Shown here: positions 1-26,563 of the stretch, piece after piece
Numbering within the stretch: the stretch's first letter is position 1
How the letters are laid out: each line of letters begins with the position of its first letter
Assembly: GCA_964561145.1 (NCBI GenBank)
Contig: CAZLNZ010000006.1
Span: 1 to 64,000 of the forward strand
Direction of reading: 5' to 3'
Length of the DNA: 64,000 bases
Origin: an uncultured Christensenellaceae bacterium
GTDB lineage: Bacteria; Bacillota; Clostridia; Christensenellales; CAG-1252
Notes under the pieces: generated by a model
The model's input: only the letters and a program-made list of their open reading frames with translations
Told to the model about the DNA's origin: nothing
The model's database searches: none
Translations under genes and position numbers: made by a program

Positions 1-3000
1 AAATCAATCTGCGGATATCAAAGCTCACTTTGAAGATTATAAAGGCGAACAAGTTGAGATGGATATCTCTTACTCTGCTGAATTTATTAATGCTGGCTCT
101 TACACCTTGACCGCTAGGTACGGAAATACTAACTATATTTATAACGACAATGAAAATAATGTAACAATAGCACAAAAGACATTGACAATAAGTGCGGACA
201 ACAAGAGTATTTATTATGGTGATAGCGTTACATTCTCCTATAATACTATCGGATTAATTGAGGGTGATAAGATAGGAACTATCGGCTATACTTGTAGTTA
301 TAGCGTAGGCTCTGATATAGGAAGCTATTCAGTTACTCCTTATGGTGCAGAAAACTCCAACTATATTATAGGTTACACCGATGGAATGCTTACAGTCACT
401 GCAAAGGTTGTTCGAATTGTTTGGGAAAGTGATGACTCGTATGTATATAGCGGAGCTTCTCAACTTGAGAGCGTAAAAGCTTACTATTTGGCATATACAA
501 ATGATAAAGTGTACGGTTCCTTAAGCTTATCCGGAGATTTCTCCGAGTTTAAGAATGCAGGTTCTTATACCTTTACAGTAACCTTTGCAAGCGATGCAAA
601 CTATAACGTACAAGGAGGTACAACAAAGTCTATAAATATAGCTAAAGCAACCTACAGCGGAATTACCCATGCAGGCTTCAAGGGAACCTATGATCCCCAA
701 GCAACCCTGAACGGTAACTATAGCTTTGGAGAGAATTCTCCATATAACTGGGTTAGTGGTTCAACAAAACCTGTAGTAAATACTAAGGAATATGCTGCAA
801 TCTACAATGCCGATCCTGTCAATTACGAAAACTTCCCATTGAACGTAAAGGTGGATTTGGAAAAAGCGACTTATTCTGATAGTGAGATTCCTAGCATCTA
901 CACCACGGAATTTGAGCTTGGAACATATGATCCTACGAATACACTGAAAAAATTATCAACCGATGGAAAAGTCACGTTGGCTAGCGGTTACTATTGGGTT
1001 GACGATAGTTTAGTACCTTCTGTAAGTACTGATGGTAAGAGCTATTCTGCTTACTATAATGCCGACTCTTACAACTACCATAATAAGGATGTCTCTGTCA
1101 TCATTAAAGTTTTGAGTAAGCTACAATTAAAAGAAGCCGATATACCTAATACTAGTATCACGCAAGACTTCGATCCCGAGAAGAAGGTCTCAGACTACCT
1201 TAATGATCTTCCTAATTCAGGTGCCGGTTTCAGCTTTGCAAGTACCGTAACAGATGCACAAAAGAATACTATCCTCAATGCTCGTGAGGCAGCTCATACC
1301 TTCGCTGTAATCTATAATCCTGATTCAACTAACTATGATGATTACACAACAGAAATAAGTATAACCATCAATAAGGCAAGCAGGAATGCAGAAGATCTCA
1401 AGAAAACCATTGACGGCGGCATATATGTTAAAGGAAATACCCTTGCAAATTACACTCTGCCCGAAGGATACACTTGGACTACTCCCTCAACCCCTGCTTC
1501 TCGTGATAGTACAGATGACAATGTGTACCCTGTCTTTACAGCAATTTGGAATGCGGGCTCGGAAACCTATCCTAACTATAACGAGTGTACCGGTGTCGAA
1601 ATCACCCTTAAACTTACCAAGGCGATTGTAACACTGGATGAAAAGGTATATGTTGATTGTAAGAATACGGATATTAATAAGAATGATAACAAAGATGTAA
1701 CCGTTGTACCGGAAGCATATTACAACGGATCGAAACTAGACGATTCACTATATGAACTAAGTTATCATAATACGACTAACGTATTTTCTCAAGGTGGAAC
1801 ATATTCTATGACGGTTTCCTTAAAATCTGAAAACTTCATGTTGGCAACGGAAGCGGTTACTGTATTAGCAAAAGTAAGAAGTGTTGCACTAAAATCTGAT
1901 ATAGACACTCTCTTGGAAATTGAAGATGCTTTATCCTTAACCACCAGCGATACAATAATAGTTATGTACAATACCATACTTAATAATAGTGCAACAGTAA
2001 ATAGTGGTGTAACTTTATTAGTACCTTATGGCGACCCCTCCGACGAAAATTTCGATTATACGCTAGGTGCAACAACTACAACGTCCGCAGGTATAGGCTC
2101 TTCGTATGTAACCCTTACTATTGGCGATGGAAAGAGACTTGATGTAAATGGAACAATAAATGTTTCCGGTTTACAGTACGGTGCATCAACCCAATATACC
2201 GGCTATACAACAGGAAATTATGGACAAGTTTCAATGGAAGATGGTTCTATTATCTATGTAAACAAAGGTGCTAATATATATTCATTTGGTTATGTAGTAG
2301 GAAGCGGTGATGTTGTATTACTTGATGGAGCGAATGGATATGAGCCATTAGATATTAAAGATTGGCCTGGTGGAAAAGCTTCATACCAAGCAAGAAACAC
2401 GTATTTTCCATTTAGTCAATTCCGCATAGCCAACATAGAAGTTTCTTTACGTATTTCCTATGGTGCAGCACTAAATGCACAATATCATATTTATGCTGAT
2501 GATACCAGTTTTGTAAATAGCATACAATTTGTAGGTAGCAGTGGCTTATTTGCGATTACTTCAGATGGAAGTTATATTGAAAAAAAATTGGATACGGCAA
2601 CAGGAAAAATCGATTTAACTTTATCAGGTTATGTGCAAACAAATAATATGACTGTCTCAGTGAAAGTTAAAATTGGTGTTAGCATGAACGTTGAAATGAG
2701 TACCTCAGGGAAGGAGATTCCTATTTGTGGTTATTACAATATTGTTGTTGCTAAAGGTGAAGTAACTGCAAATTCCAAGTTTAAATTGATGCCAGGTTCT
2801 TCTTTTATCATAAAAAAGGGTGCAAAGGTCACGGTTGCTGCTGATAGCAAAGCAGGAGTAATTGCCTATAACGGAAGTTCTCATCCTGATGTTTTCACGG
2901 GATTAAATAGTGATGGTAAAGGCACACGCGTTTATGGCGGTGATTTGACAAAAAAGAATATAAGGTCTGGCATTGTAAATAGTGTTGTTTATACCGCAGC

Positions 3001-3316
3001 ACAGCCTGCTATTTTTAAAGTCAATGGAGAGCTAGAAATGCTAGGTTATTCCGAGACAACCACTAACTGGCTTGGGAAACAAGAGACCACTACATATGGT
3101 GGGGTGCTTGGTGGCAATATAACCACAGAGTATGACTCGTCAAGGATTATAATAAACAAGCATGCCAGCACATCGGGTTCTTATATAATTAGTGTAAAAG
3201 CTGGTTCCTTGTTATCCTTAGATGATAAAACCACTTATGAATTCGCCGCCACCTCAGGAAGCACCACCCTTACTGCCGGTACGACCTACACCGGCAATGG
3301 TTCGACATTTGAATAA
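1..3316 (+). CDS. Large secreted/surface repeat protein, 5' partial. The frame is open from window position 2, so the first ATG at 59 is not the true start. N-terminal repeated Ig-like modules of MBG type (e.g. YSVTPYGAENSNYIIGYTDGMLTVTAK); C-terminal Gly/Thr/Ser-rich region suggestive of a beta-helix.
   Basis: 3.2-kb uninterrupted ORF with no stop upstream of 59 in the same frame. Internal repeats of the T-x-YDG/YTY type are visible in the translation. Stop codon at 3314-3316. Confidence 0.8.
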   Translation, partial: NQSADIKAHFEDYKGEQVEMDISYSAEFINAGSYTLTARYGNTNYIYNDNENNVTIAQKTLTISADNKSIYYGDSVTFSYNTIGLIEGDKIGTIGYTCSYSVGSDIGSYSVTPYGAENSNYIIGYTDGMLTVTAKVVRIVWESDDSYVYSGASQLESVKAYYLAYTNDKVYGSLSLSGDFSEFKNAGSYTFTVTFASDANYNVQGGTTKSINIAKATYSGITHAGFKGTYDPQATLNGNYSFGENSPYNWVSGSTKPVVNTKEYAAIYNADPVNYENFPLNVKVDLEKATYSDSEIPSIYTTEFELGTYDPTNTLKKLSTDGKVTLASGYYWVDDSLVPSVSTDGKSYSAYYNADSYNYHNKDVSVIIKVLSKLQLKEADIPNTSITQDFDPEKKVSDYLNDLPNSGAGFSFASTVTDAQKNTILNAREAAHTFAVIYNPDSTNYDDYTTEISITINKASRNAEDLKKTIDGGIYVKGNTLANYTLPEGYTWTTPSTPASRDSTDDNVYPVFTAIWNAGSETYPNYNECTGVEITLKLTKAIVTLDEKVYVDCKNTDINKNDNKDVTVVPEAYYNGSKLDDSLYELSYHNTTNVFSQGGTYSMTVSLKSENFMLATEAVTVLAKVRSVALKSDIDTLLEIEDALSLTTSDTIIVMYNTILNNSATVNSGVTLLVPYGDPSDENFDYTLGATTTTSAGIGSSYVTLTIGDGKRLDVNGTINVSGLQYGASTQYTGYTTGNYGQVSMEDGSIIYVNKGANIYSFGYVVGSGDVVLLDGANGYEPLDIKDWPGGKASYQARNTYFPFSQFRIANIEVSLRISYGAALNAQYHIYADDTSFVNSIQFVGSSGLFAITSDGSYIEKKLDTATGKIDLTLSGYVQTNNMTVSVKVKIGVSMNVEMSTSGKEIPICGYYNIVVAKGEVTANSKFKLMPGSSFIIKKGAKVTVAADSKAGVIAYNGSSHPDVFTGLNSDGKGTRVYGGDLTKKNIRSGIVNSVVYTAAQPAIFKVNGELEMLGYSETTTNWLGKQETTTYGGVLGGNITTEYDSSRIIINKHASTSGSYIISVKAGSLLSLDDKTTYEFAATSGSTTLTAGTTYTGNGSTFE
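886..1391. repeat. ~506-bp core identical to 12326..12831 in inverted orientation. This is the candidate homologous-recombination substrate shared by the expressed gene and the silent cassette.
   Basis: 168/168 identical amino acids (IPSIYTTEF...INKASRNA). DNA matches at both ends and at every interior position spot-checked. Identity stops abruptly on both sides. Confidence 0.85.
2580..2587 (+). repeat. Poly-A tract (A8) inside the coding sequence of the surface-protein gene, encoding E-K-K.
   Basis: gaaaaaaaattgg read directly from the sequence. Confidence 0.6.
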
Positions 3317-3357
3317 TAAACATCATAACAAAAACTTATACCGTTGCTCGCACTTAA

Positions 3358-3397
3358 GAACAACAATTAACTACTTTGTGTAAATTTACACTTTACA
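3358..3397. repeat. 3'-flank homology box shared (inverted) with 10497..10537. Contains the palindrome GTGTAAATTTACAC.
   Basis: The reverse complement of 10497-10537 matches gaacaacaattaactacttTgtgtaaatttacactttaca with one or two mismatches. Confidence 0.75.
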
Positions 3398-3422
3398 CCC
3401 CCCCTTTGCAATATACAAAAAT

Positions 3423-3455
3423 GCCGTTTGATTTCCACAACAGAAATCAAACGGC
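3423..3455. other. 12-bp stem hairpin (gccgtttgattt / aaatcaaacggc). The T-run lies on the minus-strand side only.
   Basis: Perfect inverted repeat with a 9-nt loop. No U-tract on the plus strand, so it is not a canonical terminator for the upstream gene. Confidence 0.4.
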
Positions 3456-3609
3456 TGTGAAATAAAAATATGAACTTAAACAAGGTTATTTCGCAATCTT
3501 GCCATTTATCGAAATAGCAGCGGCAGATTTTGTGCCATAATTCAACCATATTCGCTCTAAAAATGTGCAAAACGTTATTTTATTCGCTCAAAAAAAGTGT
3601 CGTTTGCTA

Positions 3610-3636
3610 TTGACTTTAGTTTGAATGTGGTATAAT
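3610..3636 (+). promoter_or_regulatory. Promoter-like element TTGACT-N15-TGgTATAAT, carrying the conserved GAATGTGGTATAATA module.
   Basis: -35 at 3610-3615 and extended -10 TGgTATAAT at 3628-3636. The same module recurs in the type-1 repeats. Confidence 0.4.
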
Positions 3637-3721
3637 ATTTTCACAAAGTTTTCAAATGACATTTAGACATGATTGCATTTTCTACTAAAAAAATGAAAAA
3701 TACTGTAAAGTTTATATGTAA

Positions 3722-3757
3722 ATGTCATACTGAGCGAAAGGAATGTGGTGTAATAGA
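3722..3757 (+). repeat. Type-1 short repeat ATGTCATACTGAGCG(A/G)AAGGAATGTGGT(A/G)TAATA, copy 1. It contains an extended -10-like TGgT(A/G)TAAT.
   Basis: Five copies in the window: 3722, 6131 and 6413 on the plus strand, 8611 on the minus strand, plus the module alone at 3623. Confidence 0.8.
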
Positions 3758-3843
3758 ATACAAAATAATTCAAATGATGAAGTGACATTCAAAAAAATTA
3801 GATAGTAAAAAAAAATCAGATTATTACTAAAGAACTGTATAAA

Positions 3844-3930
3844 ATGTCATACTGAGCGGAAGAAATTGGTAACAATTTCAGCAGTCGAACCCCATAGGGG
3901 CGAGGTGCAACCTCGGTATCTCATCCGCAT
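3844..3930 (+). repeat. Type-2 structured repeat, copy A. Layout: ATGTCATACTGAGCGGAAG, a variable hairpin, GTCGAA, hairpin CCCCAT(A/C)GGGG, hairpin CGAGGTGCAACCTCG, then GTATCTCATCCGCAT.
   Basis: Five copies with conserved flanks and a variable central segment. Copy D carries compensatory substitutions in both conserved hairpins. Confidence 0.8.
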
Positions 3931-4030
3931 TATTCCTAGACAAGGATTCAAATCACCATTGCTTTTGATTGAGGAATCACTTTCTCATACTAATAATCAT
4001 TAAAGAATACAGCATTGCATGTTTTAGTAT

Positions 4031-4085
4031 CCCCTATTATACCCCTTGACAAAAGGGTATAATAGGGGTATAATGGGTATAACGA
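4031..4085 (+). promoter_or_regulatory. Perfect consensus sigma70 promoter (TTGACA 4046-4051, 17-nt spacer, TATAAT 4069-4074) embedded in a 14-bp-arm palindrome (cccctattataccc / gggtataatagggg). It is followed by a second GGGTATAAC copy and drives the ATPase gene at 4100.
   Basis: Read directly: ccccTTGACAaaagggtataataggggTATAATgggtataacg. An AAGGAG ribosome-binding site sits at 4087-4092 and the ATG at 4100. An inverted variant lies at 10336-10392. Confidence 0.7.
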
Positions 4086-4099
4086 AAAGGAGATGTAAT

Positions 4100-5911
4100 A
4101 TGGACACTATGAATATACAAAATCGAATTACAGAACTTGAAGCACGTATTGAAACTTTACCCAAAGGTTCTATAGCTAAAAAGAGTATAAACGGTAAAAC
4201 ATATTACTATCATCGATACAACGAAAGCGGAAAGAGAGTCGAAAAGTATATTGATCATGATTCAGTGGAAACTCTTCGTAATCAAATTGATGAGCGAAAG
4301 CTTTTGGAGGCAAGATTGAAGGAGTTGAAGAAAAAAATCGATGTACCACTGAGGAAAACGCAAAAGAAAGAAGTGTTTACCTTTAATTCATCGATTCTTA
4401 TAGGTGATAAACTGAAAAGATTTGTTGCCGAAGTGAAGGCTTATAAAAAGAGGGAATGTTTCTCACAGCTTCATAATTTTATATACAACGATGTCAAGGA
4501 TAGAGTATTTATTCTATATGGTTTGCGTCGTACCGGGAAAACTACAATGATTCGTCAGGCACTTGCCGATATGACCGAAAAGGAAATAGCTAAATCTGCA
4601 TTTATTCAAGTTTCACCTAAAGATACGCTCGGGGGTGTTAACAAAGATTTGATGCTTTTGGAACAAGGTGGCTATAAGTATATTTTCATTGACGAGGTCA
4701 CCTTTATGGCTGACTTCATCGAGGGTGCGGCACTTTTCTCTGATGTATTTGCTACATGTGGTATGAAAATCGTTCTTTCAGGAACCGACTCTCTGGGCTT
4801 TATGCTATCTAAAAGCGAGCAGCTCTATGATAGGTGTATTCTCCTTCATACAACCTTTATCCCCTACAGAGAGTTTGAAAAAGTACTCGGTATAAAAGGG
4901 ATAGACGAATTTATTCGCTATGGTGGCACCATGAGCCTTGGCGGTATCAATTACAATGAAGGTTTTTCATTCAGTAATACGAATACAGTAAACGCATATG
5001 TTGACAGTGCAATTGCAAAAAACATCCAACACTCCTTAAAGTATTATCAGGATGGCAGTCATTTTCGCAATCTAGCAGATCTTTACGAAAAAAACGAGCT
5101 AACCAATGCTATCAATCGTGTGGTAGAAGACATTAACCATCGCTTTACAAAAGAAGTAATTACTCGTGAGTTTAAATCAGGTGATTTGTCACGTTCGGCA
5201 AGAAATTTACGCAGAGATCGCTTTGCACCAAATACAATCCTTGACGATATCGATATTAAAGCCGTAACCGAAGAGCTCAAGAGTCTTCTTGAAATCCTTG
5301 ACGAAGAGGATCAAATGGTTAAGGTGGACGACATCCACGCTGCAGAGATTAAAGAATATCTTATTCTTCTTGATCTGATTTACGAAATTGACGTGCGAAG
5401 TTTCCCGAATGTGAATGACATCAAAAAGAACATAGTTGTATCACAGCCCGGAATGAGATATGCACAGGCAAAGGCACTTGTTGAAAGCTTACTCCTCGAT
5501 GAAAAAATTAATGGGCTGAGCTTGCATGAACGTATGCAAGTAATCGAGAGGCTTTTAAGCGAGATTAAGGGCAGAATGATGGAGGACATCGTCCTACTTG
5601 AAACCAAGTTAGCAAAGCCTCAAAAAGATGTCTTTAAACTTCAATTTGCCATTGGAGAGTTCGATATGGTAGTGTTTGATCCGGAAAAATTATCCTGTGA
5701 AATATTCGAGATAAAATATAGTACCCAGATAGTAGATCAACAATATCGACACCTTATTGATGAGCAGAAATGTGCACAAACCGAACACCGTTTCGGTACA
5801 ATTAAGAATAAATACGTTATCTACCGTGGATTAACCGAGATTGTTAACGGTATACATTATATAAATGTTGAAGAATACCTGAACAATTTGTGTAACGATA
5901 ATTCCCTATAA
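4100..5911 (+). CDS. AAA+ ATPase of the AAA_14/DUF4143 family (COG1373-like). It has an N-terminal ~100-aa extension with a coiled coil and a possible AP2/arm-type DNA-binding motif.
   Basis: Walker A motif GLRRTGKTT; DUF4143-like C-terminus (FEIKYSTQIVDQQYRHLIDEQ). The start is placed at 4100 rather than the ORF-track 4046 because the RBS and promoter lie within 4046-4099. Confidence 0.7.
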   Translation: MDTMNIQNRITELEARIETLPKGSIAKKSINGKTYYYHRYNESGKRVEKYIDHDSVETLRNQIDERKLLEARLKELKKKIDVPLRKTQKKEVFTFNSSILIGDKLKRFVAEVKAYKKRECFSQLHNFIYNDVKDRVFILYGLRRTGKTTMIRQALADMTEKEIAKSAFIQVSPKDTLGGVNKDLMLLEQGGYKYIFIDEVTFMADFIEGAALFSDVFATCGMKIVLSGTDSLGFMLSKSEQLYDRCILLHTTFIPYREFEKVLGIKGIDEFIRYGGTMSLGGINYNEGFSFSNTNTVNAYVDSAIAKNIQHSLKYYQDGSHFRNLADLYEKNELTNAINRVVEDINHRFTKEVITREFKSGDLSRSARNLRRDRFAPNTILDDIDIKAVTEELKSLLEILDEEDQMVKVDDIHAAEIKEYLILLDLIYEIDVRSFPNVNDIKKNIVVSQPGMRYAQAKALVESLLLDEKINGLSLHERMQVIERLLSEIKGRMMEDIVLLETKLAKPQKDVFKLQFAIGEFDMVVFDPEKLSCEIFEIKYSTQIVDQQYRHLIDEQKCAQTEHRFGTIKNKYVIYRGLTEIVNGIHYINVEEYLNNLCNDNSL

Positions 5912-5940
5912 CACGCATCTATAAAATCCATACATCGTAG

Positions 5941-5971
5941 GGCGGGGACTTGACTCCCGCCGAATCTTTTT
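5941..5971 (+). terminator. Rho-independent terminator after ATPase 1: GC stem gcggggA...Tcccgc followed by a T-run.
   Basis: ggcggggacttgactcccgccgaatcttttt. Confidence 0.55.
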
Positions 5972-6130
5972 ACACTACGGTGTTCCACACGCCTGCTATC
6001 CCTCAATCTCTAGGCTACGCCTTTCGACAGCCCCTTTTTCACAAGCAATGTGTTGGCTTAAGAAAACCTGTATAAACACAAGCAAAAGTGGTATTAAAAG
6101 GATATCGATTTACAGCAAAATCACATCTCA

Positions 6131-6165
6131 ATGTCATACTAAGCGGAAGGAATGTGGTATAATAA
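6131..6165 (+). repeat. Type-1 repeat, copy 2.
   Basis: atgtcatactaagcggaaggaatgtggtataataa. Confidence 0.8.
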
Positions 6166-6248
6166 ATTAAAAAAGTAAATGCCAAAGTACACTATAGAAT
6201 GCAAAAATCCTTCTAGAAAATCGAAAAGTATCGCAAAAGTATACATTA

Positions 6249-6410
6249 ATGTCATACTGAGCGGAAGGTGAAGCCTGGAGTCGAACCCCATCGGGGCGAG
6301 GTACAATCTCGGTATCTCATCCGCATTCACTCGCATTGCTTTACACAAGGCAGCCTTTTCCTATGGTGTGTTAATACAAAATTCTAAAATAATTGCCGGC
6401 AAATTATCTA
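6249..6410 (+). repeat. Type-2 repeat, copy B (6249-6326), plus a conserved 3' extension (tcactcgcattgctttacacaaggcagccttttcctatggtgtgttaatacaaaat..). The extension is shared with copy C.
   Basis: The extension at 6327-6400 is near-identical to 6621-6690. Confidence 0.8.
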
Positions 6411-6412
6411 AA

Positions 6413-6447
6413 ATGTCATACTGAGCTAAAGGAATGTGGTACAATAA
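6413..6447 (+). repeat. Type-1 repeat, copy 3.
   Basis: atgtcatactgagctaaaggaatgtggtacaataa. Confidence 0.75.
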
Positions 6448-6542
6448 TTTCAAAAAGAACTAAAATCACAAAAAACATGCAGAGAAATTGAAACGCTATA
6501 ATATAGTGCGAATATTGGCAATAATACCAGTAATCCATATAA

Positions 6543-6700
6543 ATGTCATACTGAGCGGAAAGCGAAGCTTGTAGTCGAACCCCATCGGGACGAGGTGCAA
6601 CCTCGGTATCTCATCCGCATTCACTCGCATTGCTTTACACAAGGCAGCCTTTTCCTATGGTGTATTAATGCAAAATCTTAAAATAATTATCAGTAAATTG
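6543..6700 (+). repeat. Type-2 repeat, copy C (6543-6620), plus the shared 3' extension. Together with 8449-8527 (minus strand) it forms a perfect ~80-bp inverted repeat with an identical variable segment (AGCGAAGCTTGTA).
   Basis: The reverse complement of 8449-8527 aligns base-for-base with 6543-6620 apart from about two mismatches. Confidence 0.85.
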
Positions 6701-6706
6701 TTTAAG

Positions 6707-6790
6707 ATGTCATACTGAGCGAAGGCGTAGCCGTAGTCGAACTCCGCAGGAGCGACACTCGGTGTCGGTATCTCATCCTTGTTAATCGGC
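6707..6790 (+). repeat. Type-2 repeat, copy D, divergent. Hairpin 2 changes from cccc-atc-gggg to ctcc-gca-ggag. Hairpin 3 changes from cgagg-tgcaa-cctcg to cgaca-ctcgg-tgtcg. Both changes are compensatory.
   Basis: Base pairing is preserved while the primary sequence changes on both strands of each stem. Confidence 0.75.
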
Positions 6791-6910
6791 ATCTCAATCC
6801 TTATAAAAAGGTCGCAGTGACATAAAAATGTACTGTATCATAAATTTAAATCCAAAATTAAGCCCTCCCTATGTTACTCTTGCAAAAATGTTTTGCTGTT
6901 TTACACAACA

Positions 6911-6993
6911 ATATTGAAAAGTCAACAAAATTAACCTTAAAAACTATTGAAAAGTCAATGAATATGTGTTAAAATAATATTGAAAAGTCAATG
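6911..6993 (+). repeat. Three direct repeats of (A)TATTGAAAAGTCAA(T/C), starting near 6911, 6944 and 6975, immediately upstream of and overlapping the start region of ATPase 2.
   Basis: Spacing of ~33 bp, which is about three helical turns. Confidence 0.7.
6947..6975 (+). promoter_or_regulatory. Promoter TTGAAA-N17-TGtTAAAAT for ATPase 2, overlapping the middle direct repeat.
   Basis: -35 at 6947-6952; extended -10 at 6967-6975; GGAGG at 6994-6998; ATG at 7003. Confidence 0.5.
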
Positions 6994-7002
6994 GAGGTGT
7001 CT

Positions 7003-8319
7003 ATGCTTTACAGAAAAATTGAAAAAGTTATTACTTCTCATCTAAAATCCGGCACTAACAAAATATTAATTGTAGATGGTGCAAGACAGGTTGGTAAGTC
7101 TTATATAATTAGATATATTGGAAAAAAGCTTTTTAAAAACTATGTTGAGATAAATCTCTTAGAGGATTCTTTAGGTAGGAAAGCCTTTGAAAATGTTAGA
7201 ACTGTTAAAGACTTTTACTTTCGTGTAAGTATGTTCGCAGGCAATAATATGGGTTCTAAGGAAGATACCATCATTTTTCTCGATGAAATACAAGTATACC
7301 CCCATTTGCTCACATTACTAAAATTTTTAAGGGAAGATGACAAGTATAACTATATCGCAAGCGGGTCTTTATTGGGCGTTACTCTTGCAAAAACCTCATC
7401 TATTCCTATGGGTAGTATTTCCGTGGTTCAAATGTACCCTTTGGATTTCGAAGAGTTTTTATATGCCAATGGCTTTAATGAATTTGCAATTACCTCAATG
7501 AAAGAGCATTTTCAAAATATGCAAAGCCTTGAACCGACTGTACATGACTCTATACTTGATTTGTTTAAGAAATATCTGTTAATTGGCGGACTGCCCGATG
7601 CCGTTAACACCTATTTAACCGGTTTTAATATAGTCGCTGTAAGGGAAATTCAAAAAGAAATCCACGAGTTTTATAGTGCTGATGCCTCTAAATACGATAC
7701 GGAAAACAAATTAAAAATACGTCGTATTTATGATATGATACCATCGACTTTGGAGAACAAAAAAAAGAGAGTGGTAATTAAGGATATCGAAAATATAAAA
7801 GGAAAAACCTATTCTCACTATCAGGATGAGTTTGACTATTTGATTTACTCGGGAATTGCATTAGACGTAAAAGCAATCTCAACGCCCACTTTTCCGTTAA
7901 TAGAGTCAAGCGAAAAAAACTTGCTTAAGCTTTATCTTAACGATGTCGGAATACTTACAAGCATTCTTTATAATAATAACATTCTTGCGGTTCTGGATAA
8001 CGAAAAGAGTGTTAATCTTGGCACGGTTTATGAAAGCGTTGTTGCAAGCGAATTGAAGGCACATGGTAAGAGTTTGTTTTATTATGACAATCGCAGTAAC
8101 GGAGAGGTGGATTTTTTAATAGATGATTACGATAATCTATCGGCACTGCCAATTGAGGTAAAGTCAGGCAAGGACTATACGATTCACAGCGCCCTAAATA
8201 GATTTGTAACCAATAGTGATTATAATGTAAAAAAAGGGTATGTTTTATCAAATGAAAGGGAAGTATTTACTAACGGAAAAATAACATATCTTCCTATTTA
8301 CTATGTAATGTTCCTTTAA
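7003..8319 (+). CDS. AAA+ ATPase of the AAA_14/DUF4143 family, paralogous to the gene at 4100..5911.
   Basis: Walker A motif GARQVGKSY; C-terminal DUF4143 motif (PIEVKSGKDYTIHSALNRF). The start is placed at 7003 (GGAGG RBS) rather than the ORF-track 6991. Confidence 0.7.
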   Translation: MLYRKIEKVITSHLKSGTNKILIVDGARQVGKSYIIRYIGKKLFKNYVEINLLEDSLGRKAFENVRTVKDFYFRVSMFAGNNMGSKEDTIIFLDEIQVYPHLLTLLKFLREDDKYNYIASGSLLGVTLAKTSSIPMGSISVVQMYPLDFEEFLYANGFNEFAITSMKEHFQNMQSLEPTVHDSILDLFKKYLLIGGLPDAVNTYLTGFNIVAVREIQKEIHEFYSADASKYDTENKLKIRRIYDMIPSTLENKKKRVVIKDIENIKGKTYSHYQDEFDYLIYSGIALDVKAISTPTFPLIESSEKNLLKLYLNDVGILTSILYNNNILAVLDNEKSVNLGTVYESVVASELKAHGKSLFYYDNRSNGEVDFLIDDYDNLSALPIEVKSGKDYTIHSALNRFVTNSDYNVKKGYVLSNEREVFTNGKITYLPIYYVMFL

Positions 8320-8448
8320 CTAAAATCCAACTTTATCTTCTCATTTTCAACCGAACGAATGAAATCCTCATAAATTTAGCAGCCAATTTCTTGAAGCGAG
8401 GCAAAATCCTAAAGAATGGCTCGAGTGCCGTAAAGAAAATTGCCTTTT

Positions 8449-8527
8449 ATGCGGATGAGATACCGAGGTTGCACCTCGCCCCGATGGGGTTCGACTACAA
8501 GCTTCGCTTTCCGCTCAGTATGACTTA
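8449..8527 (-). repeat. Type-2 repeat, copy E, in inverted orientation. It is the right-hand partner of copy C flanking ATPase 2.
   Basis: See the 6543 entry. Confidence 0.85.
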
Positions 8528-8610
8528 ATGTATAACTTTGTTATATTATCGATTTTTTAGAAGTATTCCTGTATTTTAGAGTGCTATTTTATCATTTACT
8601 TTTTCAATAT

Positions 8611-8644
8611 TATTATACCACATTCTTCCGCTCAGTATGACATT
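8611..8644 (-). repeat. Type-1 repeat, copy 4, in inverted orientation.
   Basis: The reverse complement reads atgtcatactgagcggaagaatgtggtataata. Confidence 0.75.
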
Positions 8645-8821
8645 TAGACAGTATTTTGCTTTATAGTTAAAATCTTATATCACTATTATTACTCGCACCT
8701 ATACATGTTTTCTTTATCCCTTGCATTGCATCTCACGACTGATGCCCTTGTCTTCGGCTAACAGTTCCTACTGCCAGCCTGTAGCGGACTTTCACCGCCA
8801 AGTTATTACGCGTGCCGAGTA

Positions 8822-8869
8822 CACAAGAAAAACCGCCGTTGGTTTTACTCAAAAGCGGTCAAATTTTAT
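8822..8869 (-). terminator. Rho-independent terminator for the minus-strand AlbA_2 gene.
   Basis: On the minus strand: accgcttttgagtaaaaccaacggcggt followed by tttttcttg. Confidence 0.5.
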
Positions 8870-8876
8870 ATGTTTA

Positions 8877-10211
8877 TTATTCTTGTATCTTCCAATGTCC
8901 ACCTTTAGCTGGGCCGACATGAATTATCACTTGACTTTTCTTTAATGCCCTACTAATAGTTGGCACAGATTTTCCTGTTTTCTCTGACATTTTAGCCTTT
9001 GAGATGTATGGGTTTTCTTTAATAAGATTGATTAGCATTTTTTCTGTATCATTTTCTGTATCATTTTCTGTATCACTTTTCCCAAGTAAACGTTCTTGTT
9101 TGCTTCTGTTTAATATGTTATAGGGCAGAATACATTGTATAAATGACGAGCCAAAATGATAGGCATCTTTACCATATTTCGACACTATAGTAGGCACACC
9201 TTTTCCTGATTGTTCCATATAGTGTAATTGCATGAAAATTTTTGCAAATTCTTCATTGACAGGTTTACTGATTCCATTAAAGAATTCTTCTTTTGTCATC
9301 CCTTCAGTTAAAAGTCCGTATGAGATAATTTCTAATCTATCATCAAAACCATATATTGCCGGAGGTGTTTGTTCTACCCATAAATTATGACATACTGCAT
9401 TAAACCAAGCCTCACGGAAGGACTCATTATCAAAATACGGCGTATCGACTCTATTCTTTCCAATAATATTTGTTTGAATTATATTGAGCACATTTAATGC
9501 ATAATCCAATGCATCTTCCATTTGCTTAAAAATACATCCTCTTTCAAATTCTTTTCGTGATAAAAATTCTGCTTTGGTTGTGCCATTAAACCGAACTACT
9601 TTTATTGATGTATCATTCTGATCTGATACCAGAAATGCGATATAGTTATATTTGCCTTCATTATTTCTCAAATTATAGTTTTGTTCAAACGTTGCACCAT
9701 TAAAATGTATACCTTTAAATGCAAGTATCGCTTGAAATTGAGCAAACGATAAATCTTGACGAGGGCTTAATTTTTGTTTCATTGATTGCTTAGGAATGGA
9801 CAGTTGTGCAATATATCTTTGTTCGATTTCCTCTTCAGTCATACTACGGCAGGTCGTACCAATACGGACATAACAGCCACTTGCACTACGACCATATTTC
9901 TTTATATAGAAAAGGCCATCACCCTTGCGGACCTTTATTTCAACAACATTTTTGCCTTCAACAAACTTTGTGCCGAGCTCAATATATTTTTGTGAATTCG
10001 GTAAAATTTGCGTAGTAATTATATCTGCGATTTTCTTTTGCGTTTCATCAAGATTGTTAATACCAACAACACTTCCGTCATCTTCCACGCCGATGTAAAT
10101 AACACCGTCAAAGCTATTAAGAAATGCCACGATTTCTTTTGAAAGAGAGTCGTTCATTATTCTTTTTAATTCTACCTTTTCGGTTTCTTGGAATATCATA
10201 AAAGCACCCAC
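8877..10211 (-). CDS. Schlafen-like AlbA_2 (divergent AAA_4) domain protein. It has a RecG-C-terminal-like ATPase-fold region and a C-terminal HTH, and is typically annotated as a putative DNA-binding protein or transcriptional regulator.
   Basis: N-terminal motif ELKRIMNDSLSKEIVAFLNSFDGVIYIGVEDDGSVVGI; C-terminal HTH-like region VPTISRALKKSQVI. Confidence 0.65.
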   Translation of the reverse strand: MGAFMIFQETEKVELKRIMNDSLSKEIVAFLNSFDGVIYIGVEDDGSVVGINNLDETQKKIADIITTQILPNSQKYIELGTKFVEGKNVVEIKVRKGDGLFYIKKYGRSASGCYVRIGTTCRSMTEEEIEQRYIAQLSIPKQSMKQKLSPRQDLSFAQFQAILAFKGIHFNGATFEQNYNLRNNEGKYNYIAFLVSDQNDTSIKVVRFNGTTKAEFLSRKEFERGCIFKQMEDALDYALNVLNIIQTNIIGKNRVDTPYFDNESFREAWFNAVCHNLWVEQTPPAIYGFDDRLEIISYGLLTEGMTKEEFFNGISKPVNEEFAKIFMQLHYMEQSGKGVPTIVSKYGKDAYHFGSSFIQCILPYNILNRSKQERLLGKSDTENDTENDTEKMLINLIKENPYISKAKMSEKTGKSVPTISRALKKSQVIIHVGPAKGGHWKIQE

Positions 10212-10335
10212 TTCACTTTAAGTTATTTTAATTATAACAAAAAAAATGGAAAAATTCAACACTTACCCGATAACAATTGACTATTTTTCCTTGAATCTAT
10301 TCACTAATGATTGTATTAATCTTTTGCGATGTTTT

Positions 10336-10392
10336 TGCTATACCCCTATTATACCCATTATACCCCTTTGTCAAGGGGTATAATGGGTATAA
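10336..10392 (-). promoter_or_regulatory. Inverted variant of the palindrome-embedded promoter element. A 13-bp-arm palindrome (cccattatacccc / ggggtataatggg) carries TTGACA in its loop on the minus strand, followed by TATAAT at a 15-nt spacing and further GGGTATAAT copies. It points toward the AlbA_2 gene.
   Basis: Minus strand reads ccccTTGACAaaggggtataatgggTATAATagggg. Same building blocks as 4031-4085. Confidence 0.6.
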
Positions 10393-10469
10393 TCAATGAG
10401 GTAACCAACTGCGGACGTTTTTTTGCTATGGGGTTTGTTTATGGTGAGGTAAAGTTTATTACAGAAAAT

Positions 10470-10497
10470 AGCGAGACTTTTGTCGGTCTCGCTATCC
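10470..10497. other. 10-bp perfect hairpin (atagcgagac / gtctcgctat) adjacent to the flank homology box.
   Basis: Perfect inverted repeat read directly from the sequence. Confidence 0.4.
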
Positions 10498-10537
10498 TGT
10501 AAAGTGTAAATTTACACGAAGTAGTTAATTGTTGTTC
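10497..10537. repeat. Inverted copy of the 3'-flank homology box at 3358..3397.
   Basis: See the 3358 entry. Confidence 0.75.
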
Positions 10538-10548
10538 ACAGAGTCAAA

Positions 10549-12831
10549 GACAAATGTGGTTCCGTTACCTTTATAGTTACTACCTTTGGCTAAAGTTGTA
10601 CTTCCGGAAGTGGCGGTGTAGGTATGGTTGGTGTCTGTTTCTGAAAAGGATATTCCACTGCTCAACAATTTTGCCATTTACCGTGGTATTGACATGGATT
10701 TTAATATATGGACCCTTTTTAGTTGTTATAGTACCACCTAAAACTCCTTTTCTTTCGGTTTTAAGGGTATCATCAACAATAAAATTAACGGACTTTTTAG
10801 CATAACCACCATCATATGTAGCATATGTACCCGTAATTGGTGTTGGTTGAGCAAAATCATCACCCGTTTTAAGTGCTATATACTATTCCAGCATATTCGC
10901 TATTTGCAATAGTCACTGCAGCACCCTCTTCAATGGTTAGAGATGCACCAGACATAATCTTTAGTTTCGAATTAACGGTTACATTTCCTTCAGCAACAAT
11001 AATATTATAATATTCACAAATTGGGATTTCAACACCTTTAGACGTGACCGTATAAATACTTATTTTTAGTGTTATATTATTTGTTGTAATATTTCCGTGA
11101 GATTCAATTTTGATTTTCCCATTATTATCAACACTCTTAATAATGTAACCATCTTCGATTGTAAATAATCCACCAGCTCCCATAAAAGTAACAGAATCAT
11201 TCGCCTCAAACCCGGTTCCTGTAATATAGTAATGTGCATATAAGGAAGCTCCGCTATTAATGCTTAAAACTGTTTCTATATTTGCTACACGGAATTGGCT
11301 AAATGGGAATGATTTAAATGTTTTTGGACCAACTAAATTCCATACATCATTAACAAGTTTTAGGGCGGCGGTACCGCCGGGCCAGTCTTCAATATCAAGA
11401 AGTTCATATACTTCCGCACCGGCATATGCAATTACAGTACCAGTTCCTTTTATATAGCCAAATGAATATAATTCACCATGAACATATATATAAGAATTAG
11501 TTTCCATGCTTATTTGCCCATAATCCCCGGAGGTATATCCGGAATGGGGTTGTCCAGAAGATTGTATGCCGGAAACATTTAATATCCCAGATTTGGATAC
11601 TGTTAATGATTTATCGTTGGCAATTGTGAGAGTTCTATGTGCTGAACCTGTTGAAACACCATTCTTAGCAGTGTTTATAGTGCTTATATAGGAGTAATTA
11701 TTGCTATATGGCACTAACAAAGTTACACCACTCTTTACTGTTGCACTATTATTAAGTATGGTATTGTACATAACGACTATTGTACCGCTAGTTGTTGAAG
11801 ATAAGGCGTCCTCGATTTCTAAAAGGGTTTTAGTGTCGGTACTTAATGCAACACTTCTAACCTTGACAGTAACAGTAACCGCTTCCGTTGCCAACATGAA
11901 GTTGTCAGATTTTAAGGAAACCGTCATAGAATATGTTCCACCTTGAGAGAAGAGGTTCGTAGTATTGCCATAACTCAAGGTATAAGATGAGGTATCTTCA
12001 ATAACTGAACCGTTGTAATAAACATTAGGAATAGCCTTAATCTGATCGCCGGTATAATCAACGTAAACAAGAGAATCAATCGTTACAACCGCCTTGGAAA
12101 TCTTAAGAGTTATCTCAACACCGGTACACTCGTTATAGTTACTATCATATTCAGAACCCTTATTCCAAATTGCTGTAAAGACAGGGTACTCGTCGTCCTT
12201 TATACTAGTACGAGAAGCAGTAAGAGAGGAGTCTGTCCAAGTGTATCCTTCGGGCAGAGTGTAATTTGCAAGGGTATTGCCGCGAACATATTCGCCTGCG
12301 TTCTCAATGGTGTACTTAAGGTCGCCTGCATTCCTGCTTGCCTTATTGATGGTTATACTTATTTCTGTTGTGTAATCATCATAGTTAGTTGAATCAGGAT
12401 TATAGATTACAGCGAAGGTATGAGCTGCCTCACGAGCATTGAGGATAGTATTCTTTTGTGCATCTGTTACGGTACTTGCAAAGCTGAAACCGGCACCTGA
12501 ATTAGGAAGATCATTAAGGTAGTCTGAGACCTTCTTCTCGGGATCGAAGTCTTGCGTGATACTAGTATTAGGTATATCGGCTTCTTTTAATTGTAGCTTA
12601 CTCAAAACTTTAATGATGACAGAGACATCCTTATTATGGTAGTTGTAAGAGTCGGCATTATAGTAAGCAGAATAGCTCTTACCATCAGTACTTACAGAAG
12701 GTACTAAACTATCGTCAACCCAATAGTAACCGCTAGCCAACGTGACTTTTCCATCGGTTGATAATTTTTTCAGTGTATTCGTAGGATCATATGTTCCAAG
12801 CTCAAATTCCGTGGTGTAGATGCTAGGAATC
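10549..12831 (-). pseudogene. Silent, 5'-truncated and 3'-frameshifted inverted paralog (cassette) of the surface-protein gene. Homology to 886..3357 of the expressed gene.
   Basis: No ATG: the ORF track begins at an internal TTG (12740), and an in-frame TAG lies eight codons upstream of where the homology starts. It is identical to the expressed gene over 12326-12831 and divergent (~65% aa) thereafter. After the TAA at 10869-10871, homology to the last ~150 aa of the expressed gene (GVLGG-ITT.., ATSGSTTL.., YKGNGTTF) continues in other reading frames down to 10549. Confidence 0.75.
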
Positions 12832-13041
12832 TTAGCATAATCTTTCTAGAACCACCTTTATGTTCGATATTTTCGTAAGGCGGAGGCAAGGCTTACACTG
12901 CTATATTATGCAATATTTGTACGCAAAGAAGTTGTAATGTGGATATTTATTTGACGGGACGGCATCAAAGATGCCTGCAATCCTTCAGTCAATTCGCTAT
13001 GCTCCTTGATAGTGCCTTTTATATCGGGCAGCTTTGTTTTA

Positions 13042-13065: not shown

Positions 13066-13215
13066 TCATTGTTACATTAACATAGAACAACTATAGGTCA
13101 TACTATAACATCGGTTTCTTTTCCTTATGAAAAGCCGTTATTCTATACAATGATTACTGTAACCTGTGTAGTTTGGGTTGGCGGTTTGGTTATCATAGGT
13201 TGATTAAAAAAAGAA

Positions 13216-13250
13216 CGTGGTACTGAAAAACAAGTACCACGCCTTTTTTC
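13216..13250 (-). terminator. Bidirectional rho-independent terminator. It mainly serves rtcB on the minus strand.
   Basis: cgtggtact-gaaaaaca-agtaccacg with T-runs on both strands. Confidence 0.6.
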
Positions 13251-13319: not shown

Positions 13320-14519
13320 TCAATTAGCGGCTTTTAAGTTATATACGGGGTATATTCTACGCTCTATATCAACTGTATCCGCTATGTTTGCAATGAGGGT
13401 GTTTACGCTCTTATATGCATCGGGGCTTTCATCAAGCGTCCCTTTGCAAATGGAAGTGGAGTAGATGCCCTTCATTTGCTGCTCATACGTATCCATGGAT
13501 AAGGTTTGGAACGCCTTCGAGCGGCTCATAAGTCGTCCGGCTCCATGAGGAGCACTTTGGTTCCAGTCCTTATTTCCAAGTCCGATACATATCAAAGCAC
13601 CGTCACGCATATTGATGGGTATCAATAACCTTTCACCCAAACGAGCTGAAACAGCACCTTTACGTAATATATTATAGTCGATATCGATGTAATTGTGAAC
13701 CGTTGTAAAGGTATTTTTTATATTAATTTTCATTATTTTTTCTATTTCAGCCATCATTGCTTGTCTATTTAGCTCCGCGAAATGCTGTACGATTTTCATA
13801 TCGTGAATATAGTCCTCAAAATCTTTTCCTTCAACATACGCTAGTTCTTTTGGAATGTCGCATTTTTGCTTTTCAAGATCTCGGAGTTTCTTTTCTATCT
13901 GCTTTTCGTGTCCTTTTCTTTTTAGTGAATCGATAAGTGTATTAATTTGCTCCTGTTTCTTATCGGAAAAACGTCTATATGCAAGCTTTTGATAGTAGGA
14001 GGCGACCTCTACACCTAGGTGACGGCTTCCGGAGTGAATAACAACATAAAGATTTCCTTCATCATCCTTATCTACCTCTATAAAGTGATTTCCGCTACCT
14101 AGTGTACCTATGCTAAGCATGGCTCGATTATGGTCTATACTTTTATAGCAACGGAGCTCGGTAAGATCGATTTTTTCCGAATACGGGTGTGGCATTTTTC
14201 GTATACTATTACCTGTTGGAATGTTTTGACGTATGCCTTTGTCGAGATCGGGGAAAGAAAGCTCCTTTTCTTCGATTTGAGCAACCTCCATTCCACAACC
14301 GATATCTACGCCCACCATATTGGGAATCACTTTATCCGTTATTGTCATAGTCGTTCCTATCGTACAACCCGCACCCATGTGGACGTCGGGCATAATGCGT
14401 ATTTTACTTTTTTCGAATGGCTTGAAATCGCATAATGTTTTAATTTGTTCTATTGCACCCTGTTCTATTATGTCGGTATAAATCTTCGCACTGTTATGCT
14501 TACCTTTTATCGTCATCAT
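13320..14519 (-). CDS. rtcB: RNA ligase RtcB (release-factor-H-independent short form, ~399 aa).
   Basis: Motifs MPDVHMGAGCTIG, GSGNHFIE and APHGAGR. AAGGAGG RBS 8 nt upstream. Confidence 0.85.
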   Translation of the reverse strand: MMTIKGKHNSAKIYTDIIEQGAIEQIKTLCDFKPFEKSKIRIMPDVHMGAGCTIGTTMTITDKVIPNMVGVDIGCGMEVAQIEEKELSFPDLDKGIRQNIPTGNSIRKMPHPYSEKIDLTELRCYKSIDHNRAMLSIGTLGSGNHFIEVDKDDEGNLYVVIHSGSRHLGVEVASYYQKLAYRRFSDKKQEQINTLIDSLKRKGHEKQIEKKLRDLEKQKCDIPKELAYVEGKDFEDYIHDMKIVQHFAELNRQAMMAEIEKIMKINIKNTFTTVHNYIDIDYNILRKGAVSARLGERLLIPINMRDGALICIGLGNKDWNQSAPHGAGRLMSRSKAFQTLSMDTYEQQMKGIYSTSICKGTLDESPDAYKSVNTLIANIADTVDIERRIYPVYNLKAAN

Positions 14520-14760
14520 GTCTGATACCTCCTTCGTTTTATATTAATATTATATCAGTCTTTTTCGACTTTTAGTAGTACGCAGTTATTAATAAAAAAG
14601 TGCCCCCTTGTTTTTGCACCAAATGTGGCTTTGTTATAAGAAAAAATGATATAAATCGTGTCTTTACGTTTTATTGAATGGGGAATCTGTGTTTTTTAAT
14701 AAGGATATCACTTTACTTACGCCCCCTTTTTGTGGTACATTATATTCATAGGAGGTGGTT

Positions 14761-25942: not shown

Positions 25943-26563
25943 TTAAGTGTTTAGAAGAGCAACCGTTATGCTTCCGTTTGTCAAGGAGCTTACAGTTGAT
26001 CCCAGATTTACCAGTCTAAGGGTTGCATTTTGTGTCGCATTGACCAGTATTGTTTTGCTTACATTCATAATGCTGGCATCGGTCGAGGTTTCGGTTATTG
26101 TGGAATTCGCAACCGGAGTGCCGTTTAGATATATGCCTACACTTAGTTCTGTCATTGTGTCGGTTGAGGTCGCAGAATAGGAAATAAGATAAGTGCCTGC
26201 AGTGGGAAGGGTTATTGTTCCACCCGAGTATGTTATATTTGTCTCGGAGGTACCTACAGAGCTTGTAAAGGTATAATAACCGCCTACAGCGACACCCTCT
26301 ATTGCTCCTGTTTCAACATACAATCCGTTTGCGATGCCTTGTGCACCCGTAGCCCCGGTAGCACCCGTAGCACCTGTTGCACCTGTTGCGCCTGTGGCTC
26401 CTTGAGGTCCCATTATTCCCCTTTCTCCTTGCGGACCTTGTGGTCCTTGAGGTCCCTGCGGACCCGGAATCACCACGATTCTTTCATCTCTCCTGTTTGG
26501 ACAACATATATCCTCTCTTCTGTTTGGACAACAGTTATTATTTCCGTTAAAAAAGTTACACAT
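25943..26563 (-). CDS. Collagen-like triple-helix repeat protein of the BclA/exosporium-glycoprotein type. It has a Cys-rich N-terminus with a duplicated CCPNRR(E)D motif, G-X-X repeats (GPQ x4, GAT x6), and a C-terminal globular domain.
   Basis: Sequence [51 protein letters not shown] upstream on the minus strand. Confidence 0.75.

Follow-up and report, generated by a model that had tools for sequence, protein, structure and literature searches.

An inverted, 5'-truncated copy of a giant adhesin gene in an uncultured gut Clostridia bacterium forms a plausible locus for recombinational tip variation

The 64-kb stretch of DNA analysed here (the window) begins with a locus that is a large imperfect palindrome, its arms running from 885 to ~4088 and from 12832 to ~10332. 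The left arm consists of the 3' two-thirds of a giant adhesin gene (gene 1) and its downstream flank. The right arm is an inverted, 5'-truncated copy (the cassette), which carries an alternative adhesin tip and a like flank and lacks a recognisable promoter or start. The features of the locus are the following:

2..3316, plus strand: gene 1, visible 3' 1104 codons; frame open from nt 2, stop at 3314-3316
885..1391, plus strand: identical core, left arm, 507 bp, encoding two KATY-type modules
1392..3316, plus strand: variable part of gene 1, with the last KATY module, an Ig-like segment and a predicted C-terminal right-handed beta-helix
3358..3397, plus strand: left 3' flank box, 40 nt, with the 14-nt perfect palindrome GTGTAAATTTACAC at 3378-3391
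4033..4088, plus strand: palindromic box with a perfect TTGACA-17-TATAAT promoter, ahead of the first ATPase gene
4046..10211, no strand: unique centre between the arms, with three genes and REP-like repeats
4046-5911 and 6991-8319, plus strand: two AAA_14/DUF4143 ATPase genes (Pfam)
8877-10211, minus strand: AlbA_2/HATPase_c_4/HTH gene (Pfam)
10332..10387, minus strand: second copy of the palindromic promoter box, ahead of the AlbA_2 gene
10498..10537, minus strand: right 3' flank box, overlapping the final codons of the cassette and its stop
10525..10882, minus strand: 3' remainder of the cassette, frameshifted into two other frames; stop at 10527-10525
10872..12845, minus strand: main open frame of the putative silent cassette, 658 codons, with the core in frame; upstream in-frame stop at 12848-12846
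12326..12832, minus strand: identical core, right arm, forming the 5' end of the truncated copy; 0 mismatches against 885-1391
13214..13243, minus strand: terminator-like hairpin between the RtcB gene (13320-14519, minus strand) and the cassette

Judged from its domain match and its homologues, the predicted product of gene 1 is a giant MBG-repeat surface (lipo)protein or adhesin. The visible part contains an MBG_2 domain (Pfam, E 9e-13) and shares 36% identity over 907 aligned positions, C-terminus included, with P0121. This protein (2388 aa) and P0133 (2318 aa) are full-length homologues with Flg_new and MBG_2 repeats, ~75-aa 'KATY..GTYDP..YNAD..NY' modules and a C-terminal domain homologous to that of gene 1, which itself models as an adhesin-like beta-helix. 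A lipoprotein signal peptide is present in P0121, P0133 and P0009; the window does not reach the N-terminus of gene 1. The original prediction had taken 1..3316 as the gene, and the stop at 3316 was correctly placed, but the reading frame is already open at nt 2 and the gene continues past the 5' end of the window. Hence its promoter and expression are not visible; that gene 1 is expressed is a presumption.

The two palindromic promoter boxes mark the inner ends of the arms, with the unique centre between them. One of the ATPase genes (6991-8319) matches PDC-S01 (PADLOC, E 3e-175), and REP-like repeats occur both in the centre and at 3656-3931. The core repeats are 10.9 kb apart. The coding sequences are separated by ~7.5 kb (3316 to 10869; 7.2 kb if measured to the frameshifted end at 10525), with the three unrelated genes between them.

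A repeat search of the window returned an inverted repeat of 529 nt with 99% identity (885-1413 / 12304-12832). Base-by-base global alignment revealed that 885-1391 on the plus strand and 12832-12326 on the minus strand are identical over 507 bp, and that this core is in frame within both copies. The identical block had thus been recognised, but its earlier limits (886-1391 / 12326-12831) were one base short. Scattered mismatches within the block had been named as evidence against recent conversion, and there are none. A similarity of ~65% on either side of the block was also predicted, which does not describe the locus: homology to gene 1 ends abruptly at 12832/12833, and upstream of 885 / 12832 there is none because the copy ends there. 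Downstream of the core the copies form a mosaic, with 77-88% similarity in the first ~220 bp, short patches of 93-98% and about 30-67% beyond. The shared 3' flank box is real. The 40-nt sequences at 3358-3397 and 10537-10498 differ by one mismatch (97.5% identical), in comparison to about 55-60% identity in the adjoining coding sequence, and within the 64 kb the palindrome GTGTAAATTTACAC is found only at these two sites. Box and adjoining coding sequence form a layout of conserved flank and variable middle.

The truncated copy extends from 10525 to 12845, rather than from 10549 to 12831 as first described, and its upstream stop lies ~5 codons ahead of the identity block, where eight codons before the homology had been expected. 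The predicted lack of a start codon holds for a usable start: at the 5' end of the copy no in-frame start is accompanied by a ribosome-binding site, and a stop at 12848-12846 closes the frame just upstream. A signal peptide is likewise missing. Compared with aa 294-954 of gene 1, the cassette is 65.6% identical at the amino acid level. The 3' frameshifts that had been noted are two in number, near 10885-10870 and 10680-10660, each at a short A4 run, and the frameshifted remainder is homologous to the C-terminal ~115 aa of gene 1. Since both frameshifts fall within the last ~350 nt, the cassette may be decaying. The terminator-like hairpin upstream argues against transcription reading through into it.

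The first possible start in the cassette is a TTG at 12740, which corresponds to the database protein P0001 (623 aa). P0001 could be a separate expressed gene, or the whole arrangement an artefact of a mis-threaded repeat or strain chimera, both of which we consider very improbable. The assembly is a draft (92,088-bp contig), and short reads alone cannot orient an exact inverted repeat of 507 bp. The protein database contains P0001 and not the product of gene 1, which suggests a cut at the contig end or annotation as a pseudogene. In addition, the cassettes of relatives (see below) all begin at a TTG with GGTGG ahead of it. Against an artefact, the outer flanks differ (the 5' part of the gene on one side, the RtcB terminator on the other) and the inner flanks have diverged; the arms are thus paralogous and not allelic. 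Both repeat copies also lie on one contig. A beta-helix tip that has neither signal peptide nor anchor would hardly function by itself, and the GGTGG is a coding remnant rather than a ribosome-binding site, since it reads WWKN in the cassette frame and is homologous to a module of the full-length proteins.

Outside the core, the copies diverge under purifying selection, with a dN/dS of 0.31, and the cassette is selected as coding sequence. When neutral change was simulated, the frame 1391-2866 survived without a stop in 2% of trials with 5% substitutions and in none with 17% (0/3000). As the cassette is open and constrained in this way, yet has no usable start or signal peptide and lies behind the hairpin, selection can only have acted on it within a longer gene. 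Synonymous divergence rises stepwise with distance from the core (dS 0, 0.50, 0.83, 1.50 and 2.1). The absence of mismatches in the core next to sequence with a dS of 0.50 indicates that the last exchange was very recent. Beyond the core the copies also share exact tracts of 44, 44, 41 and 32 nt, of which the 32-nt tract and the second 44-nt tract are parted by one mismatch; each of the three longest was reached in 0-7 of 5000 codon shuffles. The gradient and the additional tracts point to repeated conversion with tracts of variable length. Recombination or gene conversion between the copies has therefore been both recent and repeated. The earlier reading of the sharp boundary as a sign of ongoing conversion holds for recent, repeated exchange, which boundary, gradient and patches all indicate; that exchange continues today, at a useful frequency, is a further step which we infer.

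We propose that the truncated copy serves, or served until recently, as a silent donor cassette for variation of the adhesin tip, and put the probability of this at about 0.5. The locus would then be a plausible recombinational tip-variation locus with a mechanism of a known kind. General homologous recombination between the arms would transfer sequence between the cassette and the expressed gene, either in patches by gene conversion or, by a crossover in the core, through inversion of the 10.9-kb segment, which could swap the whole tip. Such exchange may alter adhesion or antigenicity. An inversion fusing the 5' end of gene 1 to an alternative C-terminus had been predicted, and the shared in-frame core would allow it. 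However, the predicted product of a single crossover is truncated by the two cassette frameshifts; it stops at 10871-10869 and lacks about the last 150 residues of the beta-helix. Patchy conversion is hence favoured over simple inversion, given the frameshifted 3' end of the cassette. The comparison with pilin and Vsp/Vlp variation had also been drawn through inversion, but those systems use gene conversion, which fits the locus at least equally well.

An alternative is a programmed, shufflon-type inversion, in which a site-specific recombinase encoded elsewhere flips the 10.9 kb and the 40-nt box may serve as a second site. We compared the locus with the attributes of gene-altering inversions given by Milman, Yelin and Kishony 2023 (PMC9881135), namely a repeat of at least 44 bp, asymmetry of at least 0.87, a CDS distance of at most 2588 bp and orientation matching of at least 0.58. 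Two of these four sequence attributes agree. The inverted repeats lie inside two oppositely oriented coding sequences and are exact over 507 bp, and the gene/pseudogene asymmetry is at least 0.98, because the cassette is open for 0-13 nt upstream of the repeat and gene 1 for at least 883 nt, leaving one partner without a region upstream of the first repeat. By contrast, the CDS distance is about 7.5 kb, and orientation matching is estimated at 0.44 with the 884 visible upstream nt or ~0.53 if the gene, whose 5' end lies outside the window, is ~7.2 kb long like that of P0121. The 10.9-kb repeat spacing and the ~7.5-kb CDS spacing exceed what is usual for programmed gene-altering inversions (PMC9881135). 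The 34 largest ORFs of the window (all those of at least 120 aa not nested antisense in a larger ORF) gave no Pfam match to an integrase, resolvase or invertase, although some known invertible regions have no recombinase gene nearby (PMC9881135). The restriction of the perfect palindrome to two symmetric positions, and a common ~28-nt junction motif in cassettes of relatives, would suit a programmed system. The exact 507-bp repeat with graded identity is instead the trace of homologous recombination, unlike a short recombinase site, and inversion would yield a truncated product. Overall, programmed inversion is improbable. Of the inversion-ready architecture originally proposed, the inverted truncated copy, the core and the box remain; the missing recombinase in 64 kb, the 10.9-kb spacing and the single cassette speak against it.

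In Clostridia MAGs, 31 loci of the gene 1 family were confirmed by tblastn. Neither a second tip copy nor an inverted repeat of at least 150 bp was present within +/-10 kb at any of these loci from other Clostridia species (0/31), nor at L002. A single assembly covers the source lineage, and no further genome of it was found in protein, genome and metagenome collections. In a few related assemblies, 5'-truncated tip ORFs without signal peptide do recur: six further ORFs of 600-706 aa have tip-only matches, no signal peptide and one conserved junction motif at their start. In one case the same flank joins two different cassettes, and L034 and L037 agree at all but one position of nt 1-1803 but show no relation beyond that point. 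L035 carries two tip cassettes arranged tail-to-tail, and its contig ends form an inverted repeat. The junction motif of these cassettes is absent from the 64-kb window, so they are analogous to the cassette described here and not the same system.

These observations also bear on a non-adaptive account, in which an old inverted duplication left a truncated pseudogene, one end of which is kept identical by occasional ectopic conversion. A decaying paralogue of this kind is possible, if rather unlikely. It would accommodate the missing 5' end and the two 3' frameshifts, the single copy and the lack of a recombinase in the window, the wide 7-kb spacer with its defence-like ATPase genes and REP-like repeats, and the absence of the architecture from 32 other family loci. 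It is harder to reconcile with a 658-codon frame that is open at a dN/dS of 0.31, with a dS gradient and multiple patches that imply many exchanges rather than one, and with the recurrence in relatives of intact 5'-truncated cassettes, including different cassettes behind the same flank.

A silent donor cassette has parallels in Neisseria pilE/pilS, Borrelia hermsii vmp, which has upstream and downstream homology sequences, Borrelia burgdorferi vlsE and the 'functional pseudogenes' of Anaplasma msp2 (PMC4534519, PMC6011951, PMC11499132). As in those systems, the donor is open though it has no usable start or recognisable promoter, a stretch of coding sequence with about 30-88% identity lies between conserved blocks (here the 507-bp core and the 40-nt box), and patches of identity form a mosaic between donor and gene 1. 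Unlike them, the 64-kb window shows a single donor copy and no repertoire. They are found in pathogens, comprise many cassettes and were shown experimentally, whereas the present case is one partly degenerate cassette for the tip of a ~2300-aa adhesin in an uncultured gut Clostridia genome, known from sequence. In the vls locus of B. burgdorferi B31 the donor is also close by and in inverted orientation.

Surveyed gene-altering inversions include hsdS of Streptococcus pneumoniae and Mycoplasma, PilV and the Bacteroides SusC/SusD shufflons (PMC9881135). The locus resembles these in its long repeat, its strong gene/pseudogene asymmetry and its pairing of a gene with an inverted, 5'-truncated partial copy through an in-frame repeat, so that inversion would join the 5' part to an alternative 3' specificity domain. 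It differs in having no recombinase nearby, a 507-bp repeat with graded homology in place of a short site, three unrelated genes in the ~7.5 kb between the coding sequences, and a single, 3'-frameshifted cassette. In Campylobacter fetus sap, RecA-dependent inversion takes place between ~600-bp conserved 5' regions of oppositely oriented homologues. Both loci have long identical inverted coding repeats, on which homologous recombination acts in sap and could act here, inverting several kb and changing the expressed variable part. The two differ in that sap has its promoter within the segment that flips, its conserved block at the start of the gene and complete homologues, whereas at the present locus the promoter would remain external to the inverted DNA, the shared block falls in the middle of the gene and the partner has lost its 5' part. 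The Ureaplasma MBA / UU172 inversions make chimeric surface proteins, linking, as an inversion here would, a conserved N-terminal lipoprotein part to alternative C-termini at inverted repeats, but they use short specific repeats and site-specific recombination, and switching was shown experimentally (PMC3047005).

If exchange is active, the locus would let uncultured gut Clostridia switch the tip of a very large adhesin by recombination; if inactive, it is still a clean case of inverted paralogues evolving in concert, with a conversion gradient that can be measured. In this group, the phase and antigenic variation mapped to date consists mostly of small promoter invertons rather than exchange of coding-sequence cassettes. 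More tentatively, giant adhesins of a clade of uncultured gut Clostridia might exchange their beta-helix tip with promoterless tip cassettes near AAA-type ATPase or defence-like genes, through homologous recombination independent of a recombinase. The window would then hold the first cis-linked example of an expression gene plus inverted cassette, L034-L038 and L035 would be other states of such a system, and a commensal Gram-positive bacterium would show antigenic or adhesive variation of a surface protein by a route like that of pilS or sap, so far undescribed in this family. Active exchange would also explain the same stalk with unrelated tips among strains of related species. Swapping of the tip domain between strains is supported by sequence comparison in the relatives; in one group of homologues, alleles are ~100% identical over aa 500-1250 and their tips 17-45% identical.

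The adhesin gene that enters the window at its 5' end (gene 1) and its minus-strand, 5'-truncated tip copy (the cassette) share an identical inverted core, and on this point the original prediction was correct. In a global alignment 885-1391 matched 12832-12326 over 507 bp with 0 mismatches. A repeat search of the window returned inverted arms of 529 nt at 99% identity (885-1413 and 12304-12832), together with further, weaker collinear arms. BLASTN joined 885-2032 and 12832-11703 in a single collinear match (85.7%), followed by weaker blocks up to the 3' ends. The global alignment revealed no homology between the arms upstream of the core. Downstream, identity was mosaic, 77-88% across the first ~220 bp, with patches of 98% at 1789-1848 and 93% at 1969-2028 and values of ~30-67% thereafter. 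Only two copies were found in the 64 kb searched, and scans of genome and metagenome contig collections with the protein returned neither the source genome nor another strain. A strain-chimera bubble in the metagenome assembly was ruled out because the two arms differ in both their outer and inner flanks. The inverted rather than direct orientation of the repeats ruled out an integrative element bringing a replacement 3' end.

From nt 2 to a stop at 3314-3316 the reading frame of gene 1 is uninterrupted, and the 5' end of the gene hence lies outside the window. Its sole Pfam domain is MBG_2. Full-length homologues (P0121 and P0133) comprise about 2300-2400 aa, P0121 being roughly 36% identical to gene 1, and carry, in this order, a lipoprotein signal peptide, repeats of the Listeria-Bacteroides and MBG types, consecutive modules of ~75 aa and then the C-terminal domain of gene 1. 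The MAGs that encode family members belong to uncultured gut Clostridia, among them Christensenellaceae, Acutalibacteraceae and Oscillospiraceae. The cassette hence carries an alternative adhesin tip. Two alleles from one homologue group, P0018 and P0102, share about 100% identity at aa 500-1250 but only 17-45% in the tip, and tip replacement at a sharp boundary is thus a habit of this adhesin family. A homologous giant gene on a 2.6-Mb contig of an Anaerovoracaceae MAG (L005, 3568-9623) carries tandem repeats with a ~570-bp period and identity of up to 98% across 2.1 kb. Repeats of this type would break short-read assemblies, which may be why the gene 1 product is absent from the protein database.

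The cassette shares the reading frame of the core and stays open for 658 codons on the minus strand (12845 to 10872); an in-frame stop at 12848-12846 bounds it at the 5' end. An ATG at 12838 has a good ribosome-binding site but is out of the cassette frame; the earliest possible start is a TTG at 12740, and the mechanical ORF beginning there is the protein-database entry P0001 (623 aa, from a 92,088-bp NCBI contig). The main frame stops at 10871-10869. Beyond it, similarity to the gene 1 C-terminus (the final ~115 residues) runs to 10525 in two other frames, which indicates two frameshifts, each at a short A4 run.

Several measures bear on the history of the two copies. Outside the core, dN/dS between gene 1 and the cassette is 0.31 (dS about 1.1), hence both evolved as coding DNA. 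dS climbs stepwise away from the core (0, 0.50, 0.83, 1.50, 2.1). Four tracts beyond the core also match exactly (44, 44, 41 and 32 nt), a single mismatch separating the second 44-nt tract from the 32-nt tract. Each of the three longest tracts was matched by chance in 0-7 of 5000 codon shuffles. When neutral substitution was simulated on 1391-2866, the frame survived in 2% of the trials with 5% substitutions and in none of those with 17%. Together, these results indicate that the copies recombined repeatedly, the most recent event being very recent, and that the cassette was selected. Since it has neither a start nor a signal peptide of its own, this selection acted on it as part of a longer gene.

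To place the cassette among relatives, tip domains were also searched elsewhere. No second tip copy or long inverted repeat was present within +/-10 kb at 31 related loci and at L002, a further family locus. Tip-domain searches yielded six ORFs (600-706 aa) whose match is confined to the tip and which lack a signal peptide. In a scan of 1.84 billion representatives these six begin at match residue 1-4; among the close hits, the only other tip-only ORF of comparable size is P0001. All six are preceded by a conserved motif, TGGTGGAAAAAT..TTGACACCAA, which in the cassette frame reads WWKNxxLTP and shows homology to the final module in the full-length proteins. Two contigs from sibling samples (L034 and L037) are identical over nt 1-1803 bar one mismatch, a stretch comprising an ATPase_2/AAA_14/DUF234 gene and leader, and are unrelated beyond nt 1803. 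Two different cassettes thus follow one and the same flank. L035, a contig of 4343 bp from an NCBI MAG, holds two cassettes tail-to-tail, and its ends form inverted repeats with the first 54 nt identical. L034 and L037 also match over 30 nt at their 3' ends, which was considered as a tail-to-tail link between two cassettes and rejected, since a REP-like repeat at which contigs break coincides with or adjoins this match. The junction motif of the relatives had 0 hits in JGI metagenomes and 0 in the window; given its absence from the window, their cassettes are parallel cases and a different element from that of the window.

Outside the coding parts, the arms have only two islands in common, which are listed here with the hairpin on the far side of the cassette:

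3358-3397 and 10498-10537: 40-nt 3' box, containing the palindrome GTGTAAATTTACAC
4033-4088 and 10332-10387: palindromic box with a perfect sigma-70 consensus promoter
13243-13214: terminator-like hairpin between the cassette and the upstream RtcB gene

In the 64 kb searched, GTGTAAATTTACAC is confined to the two 40-nt boxes. The promoter, a perfect TTGACA-17-TATAAT, sits inside a 27-nt palindrome at 4037-4063 (plus) and 10357-10383 (minus), the only two such symmetric sites in the 64 kb. One copy precedes an AAA_14 ATPase gene and the other an AlbA_2 gene, and the palindrome may serve as a shared operator and promoter. Rfam searches of the spacer repeats and boxes gave nothing credible. With its collinear coding arms and two flank islands, the locus is an imperfect palindrome, 2.5-3.2-kb arms surrounding a 6.2-kb centre that contains two AAA_14/DUF4143 ATPase genes, the AlbA_2 gene and REP-like repeats.

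A crossover within the core would create an in-frame fusion ending at 10871-10869, the product lacking roughly the last 150 residues of helix. Programmed gene-altering inversions have been described by four sequence attributes (PMC9881135). The locus resembles them in repeat length and asymmetry, but its CDS distance is about 7.5 kb against a threshold of 2588 bp; orientation matching, calculated at about 0.44-0.53 for a gene 1 whose 5' end lies beyond the window, would fall below the threshold of 0.58 (PMC9881135). A Pfam scan of ORFs found no recombinase gene in the 64-kb window. This absence, and the MBG repeats of the encoded protein, ruled out a shufflon of the SusC/SusD type with a tyrosine recombinase. 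As in silent-cassette gene conversion (pilE/pilS, vmp UHS/DHS, msp2; PMC4534519, PMC6011951), a variable middle lies between a conserved block upstream and a conserved box downstream, and the donor has no recognisable promoter. Unlike those systems, the window has one cassette, which is partly degenerate. If active, the mechanism belongs to a known kind; one systematic survey contains no instance of it in this adhesin family of gut Clostridia. The predicted inversion-ready antigenic-variation architecture is thus partly supported: the sequence demonstrates recombination between the copies, and the relatives lend support to the cassette idea. Both the frameshifts and the large distance between the copies speak against a switch by simple inversion, and continuing inversion, gene 1 expression and any programmed character are putative.

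Several genes of the window form a defence-island-like cluster (4046-5911, 6991-8319, 8877-10211, 13320-14519, 14755-15777). Of its two AAA_14/DUF4143 ATPases, the one at 6991-8319 was assigned by PADLOC to the candidate system PDC-S01 (E 3e-175). The cluster also encodes a Schlafen/AlbA_2-HATPase_c_4-HTH protein and a divergent pair of RtcB RNA ligase and WYL-domain regulator. In L034, L036 and L037, the tip cassettes are likewise directly 3' of an ATPase_2/AAA_14/DUF234 gene. REP/MITE-like intergenic repeats of ~200-300 bp occur at 3656-3931, 6060-6429, 6411-6723, 6735-6783 and 8449-8714 (minus), the unit consisting of two AATGTCATACTGAGCGGAAGG copies and a conserved 49-mer, AGTCGAACCCCATCGGGGCGAGGTGCAACCTCGGTATCTCATCCGCATT. 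Similar motifs are present in L035 (~2000-2040) and at the 3' ends of L034, L036 and L037, which suggests that these cassette-bearing organisms are related.

Further genes were observed in the window. At 40161-47624 (plus) a 2487-aa protein combines subtilase S8, PA, Fn3-like and Big_2 domains with nine BspA-type leucine-rich-repeat stretches; the three large ORFs that follow (48197-50548, 50772-53444, 53503-57300) show little or no Pfam signal. A second giant lipoprotein gene (57445-64000, plus; signal peptide MRKKVTLILVSLILVLCSLSLLVAC) leaves the window at its 3' end after >2190 open codons and is unrelated to gene 1 by tblastn. A small collagen-triple-helix/BclA C-terminal-domain protein of the exosporium-filament type is encoded at 25943-26563 (minus), which fits a Firmicutes origin.
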